From NCBI GenBank assembly GCA_023266955.1, contig JAHFOH010000004.1:1-25506 (forward strand): DNA of 25,506 bases. The letters run 5' to 3'. This DNA comes from Nitrososphaerota archaeon (GTDB lineage: Archaea; Thermoproteota; Nitrososphaeria; Nitrososphaerales; JAHFOH01). The position numbers were made by a program, and so were the translations under genes. Positions 4,938 through 23,112 of the stretch are shown one piece after another; the first letter of the stretch is position 1; each line of letters opens with the position of its first letter. Below the pieces are notes generated by a model that searched no databases, had not been told where the DNA came from, and saw only the letters and a list, made by a program, of their open reading frames with translations.

Positions 4938-5336
4938 TTATTCAAAAACTCTCCTTAATCCCTTGACGCGATCAAAATCGGTATCGGTAGAGTAGATTTC
5001 GTCTACCCCCATTCCCCTCATGGCTCGGACCGTAAGCGCATCAACGAAGTCTATTGAGTATTCTTCGACATCTTTCGGCGCCTCTAGGAAGTCATTCCAT
5101 GTGTTAGGTAACTTTTGAAGAGCAATATACGAGTTGACGGCCTTGACAAAGGTTTCGACTTCATTCTTGCGTCGGTTGTATTCGAGCCAGTCCACCACTT
5201 CTTGTAGGACAGCTAAGGTTACCAGAGCTTCCTCTCCATTCTCGATCCGCTTGAGGATGACCCTAGAGGTCTCGTAGACGGTTCTGGGCGATTTCACTAG
5301 CACGTAGATGAAGACGTTTGTATCAACGAACCTCAA
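4938..5336 (-). CDS. vapC: PIN-domain toxin, VapC family
   Basis: FVDTNVF N-terminal Asp, VLQE, DFVDALT, IYSTDTDFD; 132 aa; overlaps the antitoxin stop by 4 nt. Confidence 0.9.
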   Translation of the reverse strand: MRFVDTNVFIYVLVKSPRTVYETSRVILKRIENGEEALVTLAVLQEVVDWLEYNRRKNEVETFVKAVNSYIALQKLPNTWNDFLEAPKDVEEYSIDFVDALTVRAMRGMGVDEIYSTDTDFDRVKGLRRVFE

Positions 5337-5596
5337 CGCCGTCGCCGCTTCCGGTCAAGCCTTGCTGCCGTCGCCTTCCTCAGCTCCTCATCGATAGGTT
5401 CCCTCACTGTGATACCGGCGGTGAGACCACTCAGCGCCTCTGTCGGGTTAAGCAAGGTGTTGGCAGGTAGAATGACTATCCTCCCTCCCAGAGCCTGAAG
5501 GGTCACAGCTTCTCCCTCCTTAATGCCAAGTCTCTCTCTCAACTCCTTCGGAATGGTGATCTTCCCCTTCTGGAGGACCTTAACTTGTATGTCCAA
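5333..5596 (-). CDS. vapB: AbrB/MazE/SpoVT-family antitoxin
   Basis: KVLQKGKITIPKELRERLGIKEGEAV swapped-hairpin signature; directly upstream of the PIN gene. Confidence 0.88.
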   Translation of the reverse strand: MDIQVKVLQKGKITIPKELRERLGIKEGEAVTLQALGGRIVILPANTLLNPTEALSGLTAGITVREPIDEELRKATAARLDRKRRRR

Positions 5597-5689: not shown

Positions 5690-7378
5690 TTAGTGACAAA
5701 CAGCTCCTAAAGAGGCAGACTTGACGAGCATCGCGTACTTAGCCAAGGCTCCACGAGTATACCTAGGCTTTGGAGGCTTCCATCTCTTCAGCCTCTTTCT
5801 AATCTCGTTCTGCGTTAGTTCTATCTCTAGTTTTCTTTTTATCGCGTCTACGAGAATTGTGTCTCCGTCTCTAACAGCAGCTATCGGCCCACCTACAACT
5901 GCTTCAGGTGCTACATGCCCAACCATCAGACCGCGCGTTGCACCAGAGAATCTTCCGTCGGTGACAAGCGCTACTTTATCGCCTAATCCCTGACCGATAA
6001 TCATAGCCGTTACAGCGAGCATCTCCCTCATTCCAGGCCCGCCCTTCGGCCCCTCATAGCGTATCACGACCACCTCACCGGCCTTGATCTCCCTCTTCTC
6101 CAAAGCTCTGAAAGTCTCTTCTTCGCTGTCGAAGACATGCGCAGGGCCCCGATGCCTGAGGTTCTCAACGCCGGAAACTTTTAGGACTGCACCTTCAGGC
6201 GCCAGATTGCCTCTCAGGATAACCAACGAACCGGTGCGATGTATCGGATTCTCTACAGTTCTCACCACATCTTGGGAGCTAGGGAAGGTCAAGTCTCTCA
6301 GGTTTTCCCTGACAGTCTTACCCGTAACAGTTAGTGCATCGCCGTTAAGCAGTCCTGCGTCCAACAACTTCTTCATTACCAGAGGTACGCCCCCAACATT
6401 GTCAAGCTCAGCCATGACATACCGGCCTCCCGGCCTCATGTCAGCTATGTGTGGTGTTCGACCGCTTACTCGGTTGAAGTCGTGAAGATCCAGTTTGACT
6501 TTGGCCTCATAAGCTATGGCGAGTAAGTGTAGAACCGCGTTAGTTGACCCACCCATCGCTACTACTACGGCCATAGCATTCTCCAAGGCTTCATATGTAA
6601 TGATGTCACTCGGTCTGATGCCATTTTCTAGCAGCGCCAAGACTGCTGCACCGCTTTTGACAGCCATCTGAAATCGTTGTTCATCAACTGCTGGCGGCGA
6701 AGCACTCCCCGGTAAAGAAATGCCCACGGCCTCAAGAGCTGAGGCCATAGTGTTGGCTGTGAATAGACCACCACATGATCCTTCACCCGGACAAGCGCTA
6801 ACTTCTAGCTCCCTTAACTGCTGAAGAGTCATGTTACCAGTGGAATAAGCTCCAACCGCCTCATACACATCTTGGATGGTTACGTTTCTTCCGTCGAATT
6901 TTCCTGGGAGTATGGTCCCGCCGTATAGGAATACCGCAGGAAGGTTGAGTCTAGCGATAGCCATAACCGAACCAGGAAGGCTTTTGTCACATCCAGCCAC
7001 TGTTACCAAACCGTCAAAACGCTCTGCGATAACCATTAGTTCTATCGAATCAGCGATGACCTCCCTGCTCACTAGAGAAGCCTTCATACCCTCGTGACCC
7101 ATGGCGATGGCATCGCTGACGGCTATCGTCCCGAACTCAAAGGGAGTCCCGCCAGCGGCTTTAACCCCCTCCTTAACTTTCTTGGCAACTCTGTCCAAAT
7201 GATAGTTACATGGGGTGACTTCATTCCACGTACTGGAAACTCCGATGAAAGGTCTCGCTAGGTCTTCATCGCTCAGACCCATGGCTCGGAGCATCGCTCT
7301 ATGCGGAGCTCTTTCAATGCCTTCAGTTACTTCCCTGCTCCGATGCTTAAATTTGCCAACATCCTCAGTGGCAGACAT
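5690..7378 (-). CDS. ilvD: Dihydroxy-acid dehydratase
   Basis: [76 protein letters not shown]. Confidence 0.97.
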
Positions 7379-7700: not shown

Positions 7701-7714
7701 AGAAACCTTATTAA
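7701..7714 (+). promoter_or_regulatory. BRE/TATA promoter (AGAAACC-TTATTAA) of the ilv-leu operon
   Basis: TTATTAA at 7708-7714 lies 27 nt before ATG 7742, the same spacing as the asd and pheA promoters, but about 190 nt before ilvB. Confidence 0.6.
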
Positions 7715-7741
7715 CCAATCAGGAAATTCGCCGTCAACTAA

Positions 7742-7837
7742 ATGTCGCATAATGTCGCAGCGGTGAGTGGTGCCTTCAGGCCCTCACCTGTAGTGATTGC
7801 TGCGAGTTTGATTCTCGTTATTATTCTTCTCTTGTAA
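7742..7837 (+). CDS. Putative ilv-leu operon leader peptide (31 aa, Ile/Leu/Val-rich)
   Basis: MSHNVAAVSGAFRPSPVVIAASLILVIILLL*: 14 of 31 residues are I/L/V, including 12 of the last 15 and all of the last 9. It is the first ORF after the TATA box, upstream of the BCAA operon. Confidence 0.75.
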   Translation: MSHNVAAVSGAFRPSPVVIAASLILVIILLL

Positions 7838-7874
7838 AGCCCACAAAAAGCAAGTTACCTGTTGCTTGTGGGCT
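7838..7874 (+). terminator. Attenuator-like hairpin directly after the leader stop codon
   Basis: AGCCCAC (7838-44) / GTGGGCT (7868-74) plus AAGCAA (7848-53) / TTGCTT (7862-67), 3-A bulge, 8-nt loop, followed by GTTTCTCCC. Confidence 0.55.
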
Positions 7875-7900
7875 GTTTCTCCCAGTTAGAGGTGACTCTT

Positions 7901-9616
7901 TTGGCCCAAATGTCCGGCGCAAAAGCCTTGATGGAAGCGCTTCGGCGCGAAGGTGTAGACGTAGTCTTCGGTATTCCTGGCGGAGCCAACCTCCCCATCT
8001 ATGATGCTCTCTATGATTCGGGGATTAGGCATATCCTAGCACGTCATGAGCAATCGGCAGCGCACATGGCGGACGGATTTGGCAGAGTTAGCGGCAGACC
8101 AGGAGTCTGCATGGCAACCTCTGGACCAGGTGCCACTAACCTAGTTACGGGTCTCGCAACTGCCTACATGGATTCTTCACCCGTCGTAGCGATAACTGGC
8201 CAAGTCCCAAGAGCGATGATAGGCAAGGATGCGTTTCAGGAGACGGACGTAATTGGGGTCGTCACTTCTATCACAAAGTACACGTTCCAACCCAAGAAAA
8301 GTAGTGAAATTCCTGAAGCCATCAAGAAGGCATTCTATATAGCTTCAACAGGTAGACCCGCTCCGGTTCTAGTTGACATTCCGAAGGACGTGCAGACGGA
8401 AGTCGAAGAGATGAACTTTCCTGACAAGGTTGAGATTCGAGGCTACAGTCCTCAAAGAACTCCTGACCCGATTCAGATCGAACGCGCTTCTGAGATACTG
8501 ATGAGAGCCGAAAGGCCAGTTCTATGGGGAGGTGGAGGCATTAGGATCTCTAACGCGTCCCAGCCGTTCCAAGCCATAGCGGAGCTACTCCTGGCTCCAG
8601 TAGTTACCTCGCTTCAAGGTAAGGGCGCATTTCCCGAGAACCATCCTTTGTCCCTAGGTCCCATGGGAATGCACGGCAGGGCAGAGTCGAATAAGCTGGT
8701 GCAAGAGTGTGACGCCCTGCTTGCAGTGGGAGTTCGCTTTTCAGATAGAACTACCGGCAAAGCGAGCGACTTCTGCCCTGGCGCTAAAATTATACATCTT
8801 GATGTAGATCCTTCTGAGATAGGGAAGAACAAGGCAGTAGAAGTATACATTGTAGGTGATGCGCAAGAAACACTAAATCAACTCTACTCTTCTCTCTCAA
8901 ATAGGATGGACAAGAGAGATGGCCCTTATCCCTGGCTCCAGAGAGTAAAGGAAGTTCGGGAAGAACTGCGTAACATCCCAGGCTACAGAGAAAACTCTGC
9001 CGACTTGTCTGGACCAAAAATTGTGAGGAAACTGAGAGAGATCCTACCTCCAGATGCCATCCTCACAACCGGAGTAGGTAGGCACCAGATGTGGGCAGAG
9101 TTGCACTACAAGGTTCTGAAGTCGAGGACTTGGATCACATCTACCGGTTTGGGGACTATGGGATTTGGCCTTCCAGCAGCAGTAGGTGCTAAAGTTGCTA
9201 GACCTGATGTACCTGTGGTGGACTTGGATGGGGATGGATCGTTCCTGATGACGGAAAACTGCCTTGCCACTTGCATAGATGAGGGCATACCGCTAACAGT
9301 CGTAATCCTCAACGATAACAGTCTCGGCATGGTTGAACAGTGGCAGCGAATCTTCTACAATAGAAGGTACATGGGAGTCAAACTAGGCAAAAGCCCCGAC
9401 ATGGTCAGGCTCGCTGAAGCATACGGGGCACAGGGCATCAGAGTTGGTTCGCTCGAAGAGTTTGAGAGATCATTGAAACAGTCCATCAACGACGACGTAG
9501 TAACTGTCATTGACGTCCCCGTTTCGCCTGAAGAGGACGTATTCCCATTCATGCCTCCCGGGAAATCTCTGAAGGATACGATTCACGGAGCACCGCAGGA
9601 GATGGCTGTCTTTTGA
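7901..9616 (+). CDS. ilvB: Acetolactate synthase, large subunit
   Basis: FGIPGG, RHEQSAAHMADG, TSGPGATN, ITGQV, GTMGFGLPAA, GDGSF..NNSLGMVEQWQ TPP motif. Start reassigned from 7862 to TTG 7901, 5 nt after the RBS GAGGTGA; ATG 7910 is the alternative. Confidence 0.96.
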   Translation: MAQMSGAKALMEALRREGVDVVFGIPGGANLPIYDALYDSGIRHILARHEQSAAHMADGFGRVSGRPGVCMATSGPGATNLVTGLATAYMDSSPVVAITGQVPRAMIGKDAFQETDVIGVVTSITKYTFQPKKSSEIPEAIKKAFYIASTGRPAPVLVDIPKDVQTEVEEMNFPDKVEIRGYSPQRTPDPIQIERASEILMRAERPVLWGGGGIRISNASQPFQAIAELLLAPVVTSLQGKGAFPENHPLSLGPMGMHGRAESNKLVQECDALLAVGVRFSDRTTGKASDFCPGAKIIHLDVDPSEIGKNKAVEVYIVGDAQETLNQLYSSLSNRMDKRDGPYPWLQRVKEVREELRNIPGYRENSADLSGPKIVRKLREILPPDAILTTGVGRHQMWAELHYKVLKSRTWITSTGLGTMGFGLPAAVGAKVARPDVPVVDLDGDGSFLMTENCLATCIDEGIPLTVVILNDNSLGMVEQWQRIFYNRRYMGVKLGKSPDMVRLAEAYGAQGIRVGSLEEFERSLKQSINDDVVTVIDVPVSPEEDVFPFMPPGKSLKDTIHGAPQEMAVF

Positions 9617-17156: not shown

Positions 17157-18098
17157 ATGCCGCGACTGCACCACCTGGACCCGCAGTACGTCCACTTCCG
17201 ATGGGATAACTCGCTATCACGCGCACTTACTATCGATTCCGGCGACACTGTAGTCTTCGACCTCCAAGAAAACAGCGCCGGTCAAATCACCCGCACCTCG
17301 ACCAGCGACGCGGTCGCCAAGCTCGACCGCAACAGGACGTACCCACTCGGTGGCCCCATCTACCTGCGCGACGCGAAACCTGGCGATGCGCTCGAAGTTC
17401 AAATTCTGAAGCTACAGCCCGCCGACTGGGGGTGGACCGCCATCCTTCCCGGCTTTGGCTTACTGAGCGAGGAGCTGCCCGGGCCCTACCTAGTCCATTG
17501 GGATCTCTCGAACAAGCCAACAGCAAAAGGGATTCGGGGTGCCGCTGTGCCTATCGAGCCCTTCTGTGGCGTCATGGGAGTCGCCCCCGACGAACCGGGC
17601 TCCTTTCACCCCACTCCACCCGGCAAATTTGGAGGCAACATGGACATTCGCCATCTGACCGCCAGCAGCACACTGCGCTTGCCTGTCTGGGTGGATGGTG
17701 CGCTCTTCTCTTGCGGGGACTGCCACAGCGCCCAAGGGGATGGTGAGGTCTGCGGGTTTGGGATTGAAACGTCGATGCGGGTCACGCTGCGCTTCTACCT
17801 CCGGAGGCAGCTCCGCCTGACCTCGGCGGAGTTCGTCACTCGGAATGGGCTCACGCCGCGCACTGACCGCCGCGGCTATTACGTGACTACGGGCATCCGC
17901 TCCGACCTCATGGAAGGCGCACGTGAAGCGGTCCGTCAGATGATCGCCCACCTGATGGGTGCCTACGGTTTGAGTCGCCTTGATGCTTACGTGCTCTGCA
18001 GCGTCGCCGTCGACCTGAAGGTCAGCGAAGTGGTGGACAAGCCCAACTGGATCGTCTCCGCCTACCTGCCACTAAGCGTCATGCGCCGGACGGGTTAG
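17157..18098 (+). CDS. Acetamidase/formamidase family protein
   Basis: HFRWDNS, SGDTVVF, GGPIYLRDAKPGDALEVQI, PGKFGGNMDI, GDCHSAQGDGEVCG, AYVLCSVAVDL. Confidence 0.9.
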   Translation: MPRLHHLDPQYVHFRWDNSLSRALTIDSGDTVVFDLQENSAGQITRTSTSDAVAKLDRNRTYPLGGPIYLRDAKPGDALEVQILKLQPADWGWTAILPGFGLLSEELPGPYLVHWDLSNKPTAKGIRGAAVPIEPFCGVMGVAPDEPGSFHPTPPGKFGGNMDIRHLTASSTLRLPVWVDGALFSCGDCHSAQGDGEVCGFGIETSMRVTLRFYLRRQLRLTSAEFVTRNGLTPRTDRRGYYVTTGIRSDLMEGAREAVRQMIAHLMGAYGLSRLDAYVLCSVAVDLKVSEVVDKPNWIVSAYLPLSVMRRTG

Positions 18099-18264
18099 AT
18101 CAGCTTTGAACAGGAGCTGCGGGCTCTGGCTCGATGCGGGCATTCTGCCGCTCACCTGCAAACTCGGAGGAAACAGTGAACGCAAACACGCGAAGATGCA
18201 AATTGACTGGGAGAGCAGTCGACGGAGCTAAGATTATCCTTCATTTTATTCCTTGGATTGTAGT

Positions 18265-21723: not shown

Positions 21724-21792
21724 ATGCGAGGCGATTACGTTTACATTAGCGAGAGTGGTTACCTTTTCGAGCTCGCCTCTATCGTCGGCTAG
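21724..21792 (+). CDS. Putative aromatic-operon leader peptide (22 aa; 3 Tyr + 1 Phe)
   Basis: MRGDYVYISESGYLFELASIVG*, with a strong RBS (AAGGTGGAGG; GGAGG 5 nt before ATG), just downstream of the TATA box. Confidence 0.6.
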   Translation: MRGDYVYISESGYLFELASIVG

Positions 21793-21894
21793 CATCTTAC
21801 CAAATATTCTAAGCGCGCTGTTACGCAATTTCTCCTCGAATCAAGTCGAAGCTGTGCCTCTTCAGCTACGTGAGATTGCGACGGAGGAGTTCTA

Positions 21895-23112
21895 ATGAGT
21901 GAAACTGTTGTAGTGAAGTTTGGCGGGTCGGTTTTGGAGAATGACCAGAAGATTCGTCGCGCAGCGGGCATGATTGAACAGATGCTAAAGGAATCGAAGG
22001 TGGTGGTTGTAGTTTCTGCTCTTAAGGGCACAACTGACGGTCTTATCAGGACGGCCCGAAGGCTTAACCCTAGAGCTTCAAAGGAACTCCTCGACGATAT
22101 CCTTGCCATGGGCGAGAAAACGAGTGCAAGGCTTTTCGCTGCTGCACTCTCAAGATTCGGCCTGAAACCTGTCGTAGTTGACCCCGGATCAGAGTACTGG
22201 CCAATTGTTACTGACGAGGGTCATCTGGATGCGAATCCCCTCTACGAAGAGACGTCAAAATTGATCAGAGAGAGGATAGTTCCGATCCTGCAGTCTGGAG
22301 CCGTGCCTATAGTCTGTGGGTTCCTTGGGCTCACTAAGTCTGGCAAGATTACGACGCTGGGCCGCGGGGGGAGTGATACTACAGCAACGCTGCTAGGCAG
22401 CTGTCTTCAAGCGAGAGAGGTTGTGTTGGTGAAGGATACGGAAGGGGTTTTCTCCAGCGATCCTGATAAGGTCACGAATCCGGTTCCTCTTGAGAGGTTG
22501 AATCTCGAAGAGGCCCAAATTCTGACTGCTGGTGGAGCTAAGTTTCTTCATAAGAAAGCACTAAAGTACTTGCAGAATGGAATCAAAGTAAGAATAGCCA
22601 GTCTAACCAGCGCCCCACTTACAGGAACCGTAATCGTCGGAGACATTCCTGATCTCTCATTGACACGTTCTGCAAGCGACATAACAATGTTCACTATTTT
22701 GGCGGACGATGTGATCGACGCTACAAAACTCTCCTTCATCATCGACGAGATCAAGAAAGCTGGGCGGGCAATTGCTGGCTTGACTGTCGAAGAAAAGTCG
22801 ATGATTGTCTATGTGGAAGGCGGGAAGAGTCTTCTTGTGAAAATTCATGACGTTATGTTAAAGCACCATATTGGGAAGGCGCTCACTTCGTTTGAAAATC
22901 TCTCGATAATAATTGTGAAGGGAAAGGCTCTTGAGACAAGCCCAGGTATGGTCCAAAGAGTTACCCAGCCCCTAGCACGAAAAGGGATCAACATCTACGG
23001 TCTGGAAACCATTGGTTCATCGATCAGGGTCTTCGTTTCAGAAGAAGACGCCGATAGAGCTCTCTCCTTGATAAAATCCGCATTGATGGTGAGCAATCAT
23101 GCAGGAAGTTAG
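21895..23112 (+). CDS. Second aspartate kinase (shorter archaeal type), first gene of the aromatic operon
   Basis: VVKFGGSV, SALKGTTD, MGEKTSA, TTLGRGGSDTTA, DTEGVFSSDP, GAKFLH, C-terminal ACT-like PG..RV..L...INI; RBS GGAGG. Confidence 0.9.
   Translation: MSETVVVKFGGSVLENDQKIRRAAGMIEQMLKESKVVVVVSALKGTTDGLIRTARRLNPRASKELLDDILAMGEKTSARLFAAALSRFGLKPVVVDPGSEYWPIVTDEGHLDANPLYEETSKLIRERIVPILQSGAVPIVCGFLGLTKSGKITTLGRGGSDTTATLLGSCLQAREVVLVKDTEGVFSSDPDKVTNPVPLERLNLEEAQILTAGGAKFLHKKALKYLQNGIKVRIASLTSAPLTGTVIVGDIPDLSLTRSASDITMFTILADDVIDATKLSFIIDEIKKAGRAIAGLTVEEKSMIVYVEGGKSLLVKIHDVMLKHHIGKALTSFENLSIIIVKGKALETSPGMVQRVTQPLARKGINIYGLETIGSSIRVFVSEEDADRALSLIKSALMVSNHAGS

Follow-up and report, generated by a model that had tools for sequence, protein, structure and literature searches.

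Two hairpins and a conserved isoleucine/leucine/valine codon run upstream of archaeal ilvB: a candidate leader-peptide element

The ilvB locus and its leader region

The window analyzed here is a 25,506-nucleotide (nt) stretch, positions 1 to 25,506 of contig JAHFOH010000004.1, from a Nitrososphaerales (thaumarchaeal) groundwater metagenome-assembled genome (MAG; 1.67 Mb, 78% complete). It contains ilvB, which encodes the acetolactate synthase large subunit (7901–9616, plus strand, start approximate) and heads an operon that continues with ilvN-leuA-leuB-ilvE. The short region upstream of ilvB carries a 31-codon open reading frame (ORF; 7742–7837, plus strand) that ends in SLILVIILLL, a run rich in isoleucine, leucine and valine (I/L/V), and two hairpins, H1 and H2, that flank this run. 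Both hairpins and their position around the I/L/V run are real and conserved, which points to ribosome-sensed control of a kind undescribed in Archaea. ilvD (5690–7378, minus strand) is divergent from ilvB, and ilvC together with an archaeal-type asd lies further left of ilvD in the window. The closest relatives of the encoded IlvB are all from Nitrososphaeria (‘Thaumarchaeota’), apart from a few from Bathyarchaeia.

All features of the leader region lie on the plus strand. The TATA-like box TTATTAA (7708–7714), as read from the sequence, predicts a transcript start near 7737, and the leader ORF, which starts at ATG 7742, would therefore be nearly leaderless. Its stop codon is TAA 7835–7837. 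I/L/V account for 14 of the 31 codons and for nine of the last nine, and the main run (L23–L31; 7808–7834) forms an unpaired linker between H1 and H2. The ilvB Shine-Dalgarno (SD) sequence GAGGTGA (7889–7895) is located 14 nt past H2 and is predicted to be about 50% unpaired in all ribosome-masked states. The most likely start codon of ilvB is TTG 7901 (TTG GCC CAA ATG), because the orthologues open with ATG GTT GAA ATG. The archaeal small-subunit rRNA gene was looked for in the MAG and is not assembled, so that the anti-SD sequence is not readable. An Rfam 15 scan of the whole window gave no match at the gathering score.

The leader start codon is covered by a direct repeat of AATGTCGCA (7741–7749 and 7751–7759, one base between the copies), the second copy of which provides an out-of-frame ATG at 7752 that opens a four-codon ORF, MSQR, followed by a stop. 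The leader and ilvB share a reading frame, and TAA 7835 is the sole stop between 7835 and 7901, so that read-through would fuse both. We rejected a leader-IlvB fusion by stop-codon read-through, since in most orthologues the two are separated by a length that is not a multiple of three; the shared frame is probably an accident.

The region 7738–7915 folds with a z of −3.09. H1 (7745–7805) lies inside the leader ORF and consists of an outer stem, TCGCA/TGCGA, and a core stem, GGTGAG (7762–7767) paired with CTCACC (7783–7788), which encloses GCC-TTCA-GGC at 7772–7781. This core had been pointed out in a sequence-only reading of the same DNA; it is present as described there and forms the center of a hairpin that is more stable than expected by chance (−25.9 versus −17.3 kcal/mol in shuffles, p 0.024). 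V17-V18-I19 lie in the H1 3´ arm. At 7802–7818, inside the leader ORF, GCGAG..CTCGT forms a small hairpin that the consensus terminator scan picks up together with the TATTATTCTT after it; this T-rich tail is the I/L/V run itself.

H2 (7838–7874) is a 13-bp hairpin that begins on the base after the stop codon and is composed of 8 bp, a 3-nt AAA bulge, 5 bp and an 8-nt loop. The same reading had placed a 13-bp hairpin here, and the analysis confirms it, above chance and conserved with the leader ORF as a unit. Anchored at the stop, H2 reaches −17.9 kcal/mol compared with −10.9 kcal/mol in dinucleotide shuffles (p 0.033), and the spacer between the leader stop and the ilvB start folds with a z of −3.9. 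A U/C-rich tail, GTTTCTCCC (7875–7883), follows H2 and has just three consecutive U. In a genome-wide scan for an amino-acid run followed by a stop and a hairpin, this locus is the sole clean case.

Conservation of the leader and of the stop-anchored hairpin

ilvB loci were sampled from 40 relatives within the order and 80 species genomes, and then from 80 further Nitrososphaeraceae; the Nitrosopumilus and Nitrososphaera loci in the comparison are all from MAGs, and the window's genome is the sole member of its family in the sample. A locus was counted when a short ORF with a terminal I/L/V run lay at most 150 nt from ilvB. By this measure, 71 of the 99 distinct orthologous loci have an I/L/V-run ORF upstream of ilvB, and the leader occurs in 13 of the 17 families that have an ilvB orthologue. 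At codons −2 to −8, counted from the stop, 75–93% of the residues in these 71 loci are I, L or V, with F, M, W and A near zero, whereas codon −1 is I/L/V in just 34% of the loci. Conservation within the run is highest at codon position 2, and positions 1 and 3 drift, which fits a constraint on I/L/V identity. A TATA-like hexamer is centered 22–34 nt upstream of an in-frame leader start in 59 of the 71 loci.

The same order of elements is found in at least 13 families and in some Bathyarchaeia: a near-leaderless ORF of 17–35 codons, H1, whose 3´ arm falls within the first I/L/V codons, an I/L/V stretch that occupies codons −2 to −8, the stop, H2 starting 0±4 nt from the stop, and the ribosome-binding site (RBS) 10–14 nt past H2. 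Two Nitrosocaldus loci (L013 and L044) differ in that their short ORFs ahead of ilvB are Met-rich (MMRMMMVCM and IMMMMVM) rather than I/L/V-rich, with no hairpin past the stop. A clear I/L/V leader is also absent from the one complete Nitrososphaeraceae genome in the sample (L026).

In 57 of the 71 loci, a hairpin of −8 kcal/mol or lower begins within −4 to +6 nt of where the stop ends, and the stop codon is often paired. Across all 71 loci, the stop-anchored hairpin has a mean energy of −11.7 kcal/mol compared with −6.8 kcal/mol in shuffles, and reaches p≤0.05 in 35. When a single genome is taken per GTDB family, p≤0.05 is obtained in 7 of 13 families and p≤0.1 in 11 of 13. The distance between H2 and the start codon varies from 8 to 32 nt across loci. 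The arms themselves vary among families (AGCCCACA/TGTGGGCT, GGACTCACA/TGTGAGTCC, ATCCTGCAG/GTGCAGGGT, GACAAA..CTCTGC and others). In a structure-blind MAFFT alignment of H2 from 11 relatives, 79.8% of the cells are paired compared with 70.8±2.7% in shuffles (0 of 500 reach this value) and 27–65% in slid controls, and 5 of the 10 pairs have changes on both sides. MAFFT combined with RNAalifold, applied to 23 Nitrososphaeraceae leaders and to 12 H2 regions, returned helix fragments only; the 3´ arms were misaligned because the loops vary.

H1-like hairpins recur in most lineages with unrelated sequences, their 5´ arm within the first few codons and their 3´ arm over the first I/L/V codons. Among 22 lineage representatives, p≤0.05 is reached in 5 and p≤0.1 in 10.

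Two groups of orthologues depart from this layout at H2. In the compact variants L051, L066 and L070, H2 is missing and the leader stop TAG abuts the ilvB SD (GAGGTG/GGAGGTG); their minimum-energy fold has the SD and the start codon paired with the I/L/V run. In L004, L005 and L034 (family f14), a conserved nine-codon mini-ORF (MQVECVNYG, MHMECVNYG or MHRECVNYG) is inserted between H2 and the ilvB start, with an SD-like GAGGTG/AAGGTG in the 3´ arm of H2 and a TGA that overlaps the ilvB start (ATGGTTGA). In this family H2 could gate a coupled upstream ORF; the mini-ORF is absent from the window.

Transcription of the leader can be followed in one relative, a soil Nitrososphaera MAG (L072) with the same design (TATA 1186–1193, ATG 1218, stop 1287–1289, H2 1290–1325, SD 1335–1339, start 1349), for which RNA contigs are available from three soil or rhizosphere metatranscriptomes of three studies. 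The depth is zero over 1100–1234, and the contigs begin at 1242–1251, that is, 24–33 nt past the leader ATG; this 5´ boundary agrees with a 5´-proximal leader ORF. One contig (1244–1407) extends from the leader into ilvB and includes both H2 and the RBS. The leader therefore belongs to the ilvB transcript, no transcription comes from further upstream, and H2 can be read through; attenuation cannot be measured from contig depths. Public runs that contain the window DNA are groundwater DNA metagenomes only, with no RNA run among them.

Pairing with the ribosome-binding site and folding around a ribosome

The sequence-only reading had proposed a two-state switch, in which a segment of the H1 3´ arm, TCACCTGTAGT (7784–7794), pairs instead with the RBS region GTTAGAGGTGA (7885–7895) and the resulting helix encloses H2. 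The 10 of 11 pairs, including two G-U pairs, exist, and the isolated duplex has an energy of −10.2 kcal/mol; the match is not above chance. The strongest duplex that the leader can form with the RBS region reaches −12.6 kcal/mol with a z of +0.52, and 65% of shuffled leaders do as well. In folds from 7737 the long-range helix has an ensemble probability of 0.000–0.001, and forcing it raises the energy from −54.2 to −47.0 kcal/mol, a cost of 7.2 kcal/mol. It is disfavored because the local hairpin (−14.4 kcal/mol) beats a −10.2 kcal/mol duplex that must also close a large loop. Leader-RBS complementarity in the 71 orthologues equals that of shuffles, with a mean z of +0.2 and p≤0.05 in 4% of the loci. 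We also rejected an enclosing clamp formed by the distal I/L/V run with the RBS, since the mutual complementarity of the H2 flanks shows no excess over shuffles, cross-locus pairs or reversed controls (z 0.08).

Two bacterial designs are related to such a switch. In mycobacterial poly-Cys short ORFs, a structure sequesters the RBS of the next gene (Canestrari et al., 10.1101/834739); they share with the present element a leaderless first-cistron short ORF with a run of cognate codons, the lack of an obvious terminator and a stalled ribosome that acts on downstream RNA structure, but pairing of the RBS is neither predicted nor conserved here. In the LEU element that precedes leuA in actinobacteria, a run of Leu codons and the SD form a base stem that encloses an inner structure (Seliverstov et al., 2005; PMC1262725), which is the same topology as the proposed long-range helix around H2. 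In the ilvB leader, however, the enclosing stem is unsupported, whether it is drawn from 7784–7794 or from the distal I/L/V run. The authors of the LEU study doubted a role for leader translation (PMC1262725).

The effect of a ribosome was modeled by masking its footprint at V17, L23, L29, L31 or the stop and folding the window RNA from 7737. The RBS is unpaired with a probability of 0.25–0.56 under every mask, and the start codon rises from 0.05–0.07 to at most 0.32. A ribosome at V17–I19 had been thought to free the RBS by masking the anti-RBS arm; the masks leave the predicted RBS accessibility unaltered. The same holds in the family, where the accessibility of positions −14 to +3 is 0.49 unmasked and 0.49–0.52 masked (71 loci), and an indirect switch, by which the freed 3´ arm of H2 releases the start codon, was rejected for want of a consistent effect. 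The suggestion that starvation switches ilvB on in either case is not supported either, because the model has no OFF state: the RBS-blocked form is never populated, since the anti-RBS arm is taken up either by H1 or by the stalled ribosome. The switch helix is thus unpopulated, unconserved and not above chance, the anti-RBS idea fails both in the window and in the family, and the RBS-switch helix should be dropped.

The response of H2 to the masks is confined to the end of the leader. A ribosome at L29–L31 had been expected to block the 5´ arm of H2, and this expectation is borne out at L31 and not at L29: the predicted probability of H2 is 0.00 with the A site at L31 or the stop and 0.85 with the A site at L29. 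With a mask that slides along 54 orthologues, the probability of H2 is 0.09, 0.17 and 0.34 with the A site at the stop, −1 and −2, respectively, and H2 stays folded (0.60–0.79) for A sites from −3 to −24. H2 is lost solely by direct occlusion, and therefore no long-range antiterminator operates in these models; the sliding mask found no mutually exclusive antiterminator hairpin in the 54 leaders or in the window.

Possible read-outs and comparison with known systems

Our preferred interpretation, held with belief and doubt in about equal parts, is that this sequence makes up the structured portion of an archaeal Ile/Leu/Val leader-peptide element with H2 as its effector and a read-out by termination or cleavage. 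The transcript would begin a few bases before the 31-codon ORF, the 5´ part of the ORF would fold into H1, and the position of the leader ribosome would set the fold. A stall anywhere in the I/L/V run would hold H1 open, and H2 would open only for a ribosome that has reached the stop or the two to three codons before it. The signal sensed would be the supply of I/L/V-tRNAs. The read-out would act on the RNA between the leader and ilvB, as premature termination or cleavage by RNA polymerase with FttA/aCPSF1, and not as masking of the RBS. FttA/aCPSF1 is encoded in the genome (TIGR03675 match of 801.5 bits with a cut-off of 580, which among the control genomes is reached by archaea only). Hairpins can assist termination in Archaea, with 59% termination in a Haloferax reporter test (PMC7237163), and a passage in PMC13675443 cites the RNA polymerase of M. 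thermautotrophicus as terminating at bacterial-type terminators. At the ilvB leader, the GC-rich H2 is followed by GTTTCTCC, with three U in a row; it is not listed by the consensus terminator scan, and archaeal polymerases have other requirements.

The sign of the control is left between two readings. In one, H2 would be a stop signal, and a ribosome that stalls on the last I/L/V codons would open it; in the other, H2 would be a protective fold, whose formation a ribosome arriving at the stop would prevent. Both readings are kept mainly because the geometry is that of E. coli pyrE, which in an amino-acid sensor gives the wrong sign. In pyrE and pyrBI the signal is the speed of the polymerase, set by UTP, and a lagging ribosome results in termination. 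As in the ilvB leader, the hairpin, a terminator in those systems, lies just past the end of the upstream ORF or overlaps it, and a closely following ribosome prevents its folding.

Several observations weigh against the preferred interpretation. The main weakness is that H2 as a co-transcriptional terminator would act when the ribosome lags, and for a biosynthetic operon that sign is wrong. Occlusion of H2 is confined to codons −1 to −3, and yet codon −1 is I/L/V in just 34% of the loci while codons −4 to −8 are strongly conserved. An oligo-U tract after H2 is not conserved, a T-run of at least five occurring in 2 of 54 loci; the family-wide U enrichment is weak (2.83 versus 2.29 expected of 8 positions). 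The genome does not place hairpins at gene ends: convergent intergenic regions have a mean fold z of 0.03 and are thus unstructured, the consensus terminator scan gave no excess, and bacterial-type terminators as a general feature of the genome were rejected on these grounds. The value of 0.03 also speaks in favor of the element, in that structure at the leader is not a general property of the genome. The L072 contigs read through H2, with no excess of leader RNA and no pile-up of ends, although contigs test this only weakly. The statistical case for H1 is weaker than that for H2. When H2 of 11 relatives is used to build a covariance model, the model does not recognize H2 of the window; it finds only its own seeds, and its sole match in the window is spurious (6712–6754, E 0.06). 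H2 is therefore kept in place and shape, not in sequence.

An inverted logic, in which H2 is a protective fold rather than a stop signal in an archaeal attenuator, is a distinct but minority possibility in our estimation. When I/L/V-tRNAs are plentiful, the ribosome would follow the polymerase to the stop and cover the 5´ arm of H2, and the emerging G/U-rich RNA, unfolded and unprotected, would be open to FttA/aCPSF1-type termination or cleavage, which lowers expression. When the ribosome is held on the run, H2 would fold during its synthesis, the naked RNA before the RBS would be reduced to about 14 nt, and the polymerase would reach ilvB. This arrangement would account for the exact start of H2 at the stop, for the filled spacer and for the conservation of all codons from −3 to −8, and it would make both a U-tract and pairing with the RBS unnecessary.

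The main rival is a steric translational read-out next to the RBS. Here folded H2 would obstruct the incoming small subunit 10–14 nt upstream of the SD, and ribosomes that dwell on the last I/L/V codons or the stop would hold H2 open and raise the translation of ilvB; we consider it rather unlikely, both as regards the obstruction and as regards the relief. It is in keeping with H2 nearly filling the spacer between the stop and the RBS (with its gap of 8–32 nt to the start codon), with its opening only for ribosomes at −2, −1 and the stop, and with the lack of a conserved U-tract, and the compact loci without H2 (L051, L066, L070) show that an RBS-proximal solution exists in the clade. Nevertheless, neither the RBS nor the start codon ever lies inside H2, and the accessibility of −14 to +3 is the same under every mask in the 71 loci. 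Opening at two or three codons, averaged over time, would be a weak switch, and the conserved I/L/V at −4 to −8 are left unexplained.

RNA stability or processing is an improbable basis for the element. According to this explanation, a stall leads to cleavage near the stop, and H2 caps the 5´ end of a processed, stable ilvB mRNA or blocks 5´-3´ exonucleases on the primary transcript. Archaea have 5´-3´ beta-CASP nucleases, and a second beta-CASP paralogue is encoded in this genome; H2 also sits exactly at the boundary between the translated leader and the untranslated spacer. The 5´ part of the leader is at much lower depth than ilvB in two of four metatranscriptomes (X5 and X8), but such gaps may stem from strain variation and from contig-level depth, and no nuclease sequence motif is present.

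It is more improbable still that nothing is sensed, the ORF being a small hydrophobic peptide or untranslated and the hairpins unrelated or due to chance. The peptide does resemble a membrane helix. The enrichment, however, is limited to I, L and V and does not extend to F, M, W or A; some orthologous leaders have only 14–20 amino acids with charged residues within the run; the ORF always precedes ilvB; and in 11 of 13 families the hairpin keeps its place at the stop, with codon position 2 conserved. The least credible explanation is the alternation of CTCACCTGTAGT (7783–7794) between GGTGAG and the ilvB RBS, with the RBS blocked unless a ribosome stalls: its complementarity and its bacterial counterparts are outweighed by the folding, shuffling, orthologue and mask results given above.

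The attenuation interpretation gains from comparison with bacterial leaders. The enterobacterial leader-peptide attenuators (ivbL-ilvBN, ilvL-ilvGMEDA, leuL, hisL and pheL) likewise have a short ORF rich in codons for the amino acids of the pathway ahead of the operon and hairpins both within and past the ORF; hisL and pheL also have their regulatory codons close to the stop, as is the case here. By its sequence, the element appears to have the short cognate-codon ORF of these classical attenuators, whereas the fold models give it no antiterminator. It differs from them further in its archaeal host and promoter, its near-leaderless ORF and the lack of a 2:3 antiterminator and of a conserved U-tract. 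The regulatory codons are in or after the 3´ arm of the first hairpin and not in its 5´ arm, and the effector hairpin starts at the stop codon itself. In the tnaC-Rho system the stall is induced by free tryptophan at the stop codon and not by hungry codons, but there too a ribosome at the end of the leader controls the access of a termination factor past the stop; FttA/aCPSF1 would be the archaeal counterpart of this factor. Corynebacterium ilvB is preceded by an I/L/V-rich upstream ORF and a three-hairpin attenuator (PMC10272879, PMC11857589). The ilvB leader of the window resembles it in the I/L/V-rich ORF and the several hairpins upstream of ilvB; the Corynebacterium system is bacterial and carries a terminator.

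Leader-peptide attenuation has often been expected in Archaea, because archaeal transcription and translation are coupled, and we found no description of ribosome-mediated (leader-peptide) attenuation in Archaea in the literature. The anatomy described here is conserved across an order of ammonia oxidizers and their relatives and is unlike the bacterial textbook design, in that it has no antiterminator, no conserved U-tract and no masking of the RBS. If it works as proposed, its route would be informative in a new way about the interplay of ribosomes, RNA folding and factors for termination or processing in Archaea. What the present analysis contributes is to reject the RBS switch and to constrain both hairpins, which moves the focus to H2 and its distance from the stop.

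Other short ORFs were compared with this architecture. A Tyr/Phe ‘leader’ (21724–21792) before the aspartokinase/aro operon was rejected as a second case, with a z of −0.31 against shuffles and no hairpin at its stop; the region 21724–21895 holds a strong helix about 30 nt past the stop, next to the RBS. On contig C67 of genome G000, a 12-codon ORF ending in NTTTTF, with a hairpin of −10.4 kcal/mol at its stop, lies 146 nt upstream of the ORF 17530–18253 and could be a Thr-type leader or a chance occurrence. Within the ilv cluster of the window, an AbrB/MazE-type antitoxin-like ORF (5333–5596, minus strand) overlaps by 4 nt a 132-amino-acid ORF (4938–5336, minus strand) that has no NCBIfam match. 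The two ORFs (4938–5596) resemble a toxin-antitoxin pair and are located between ilvC and ilvD.

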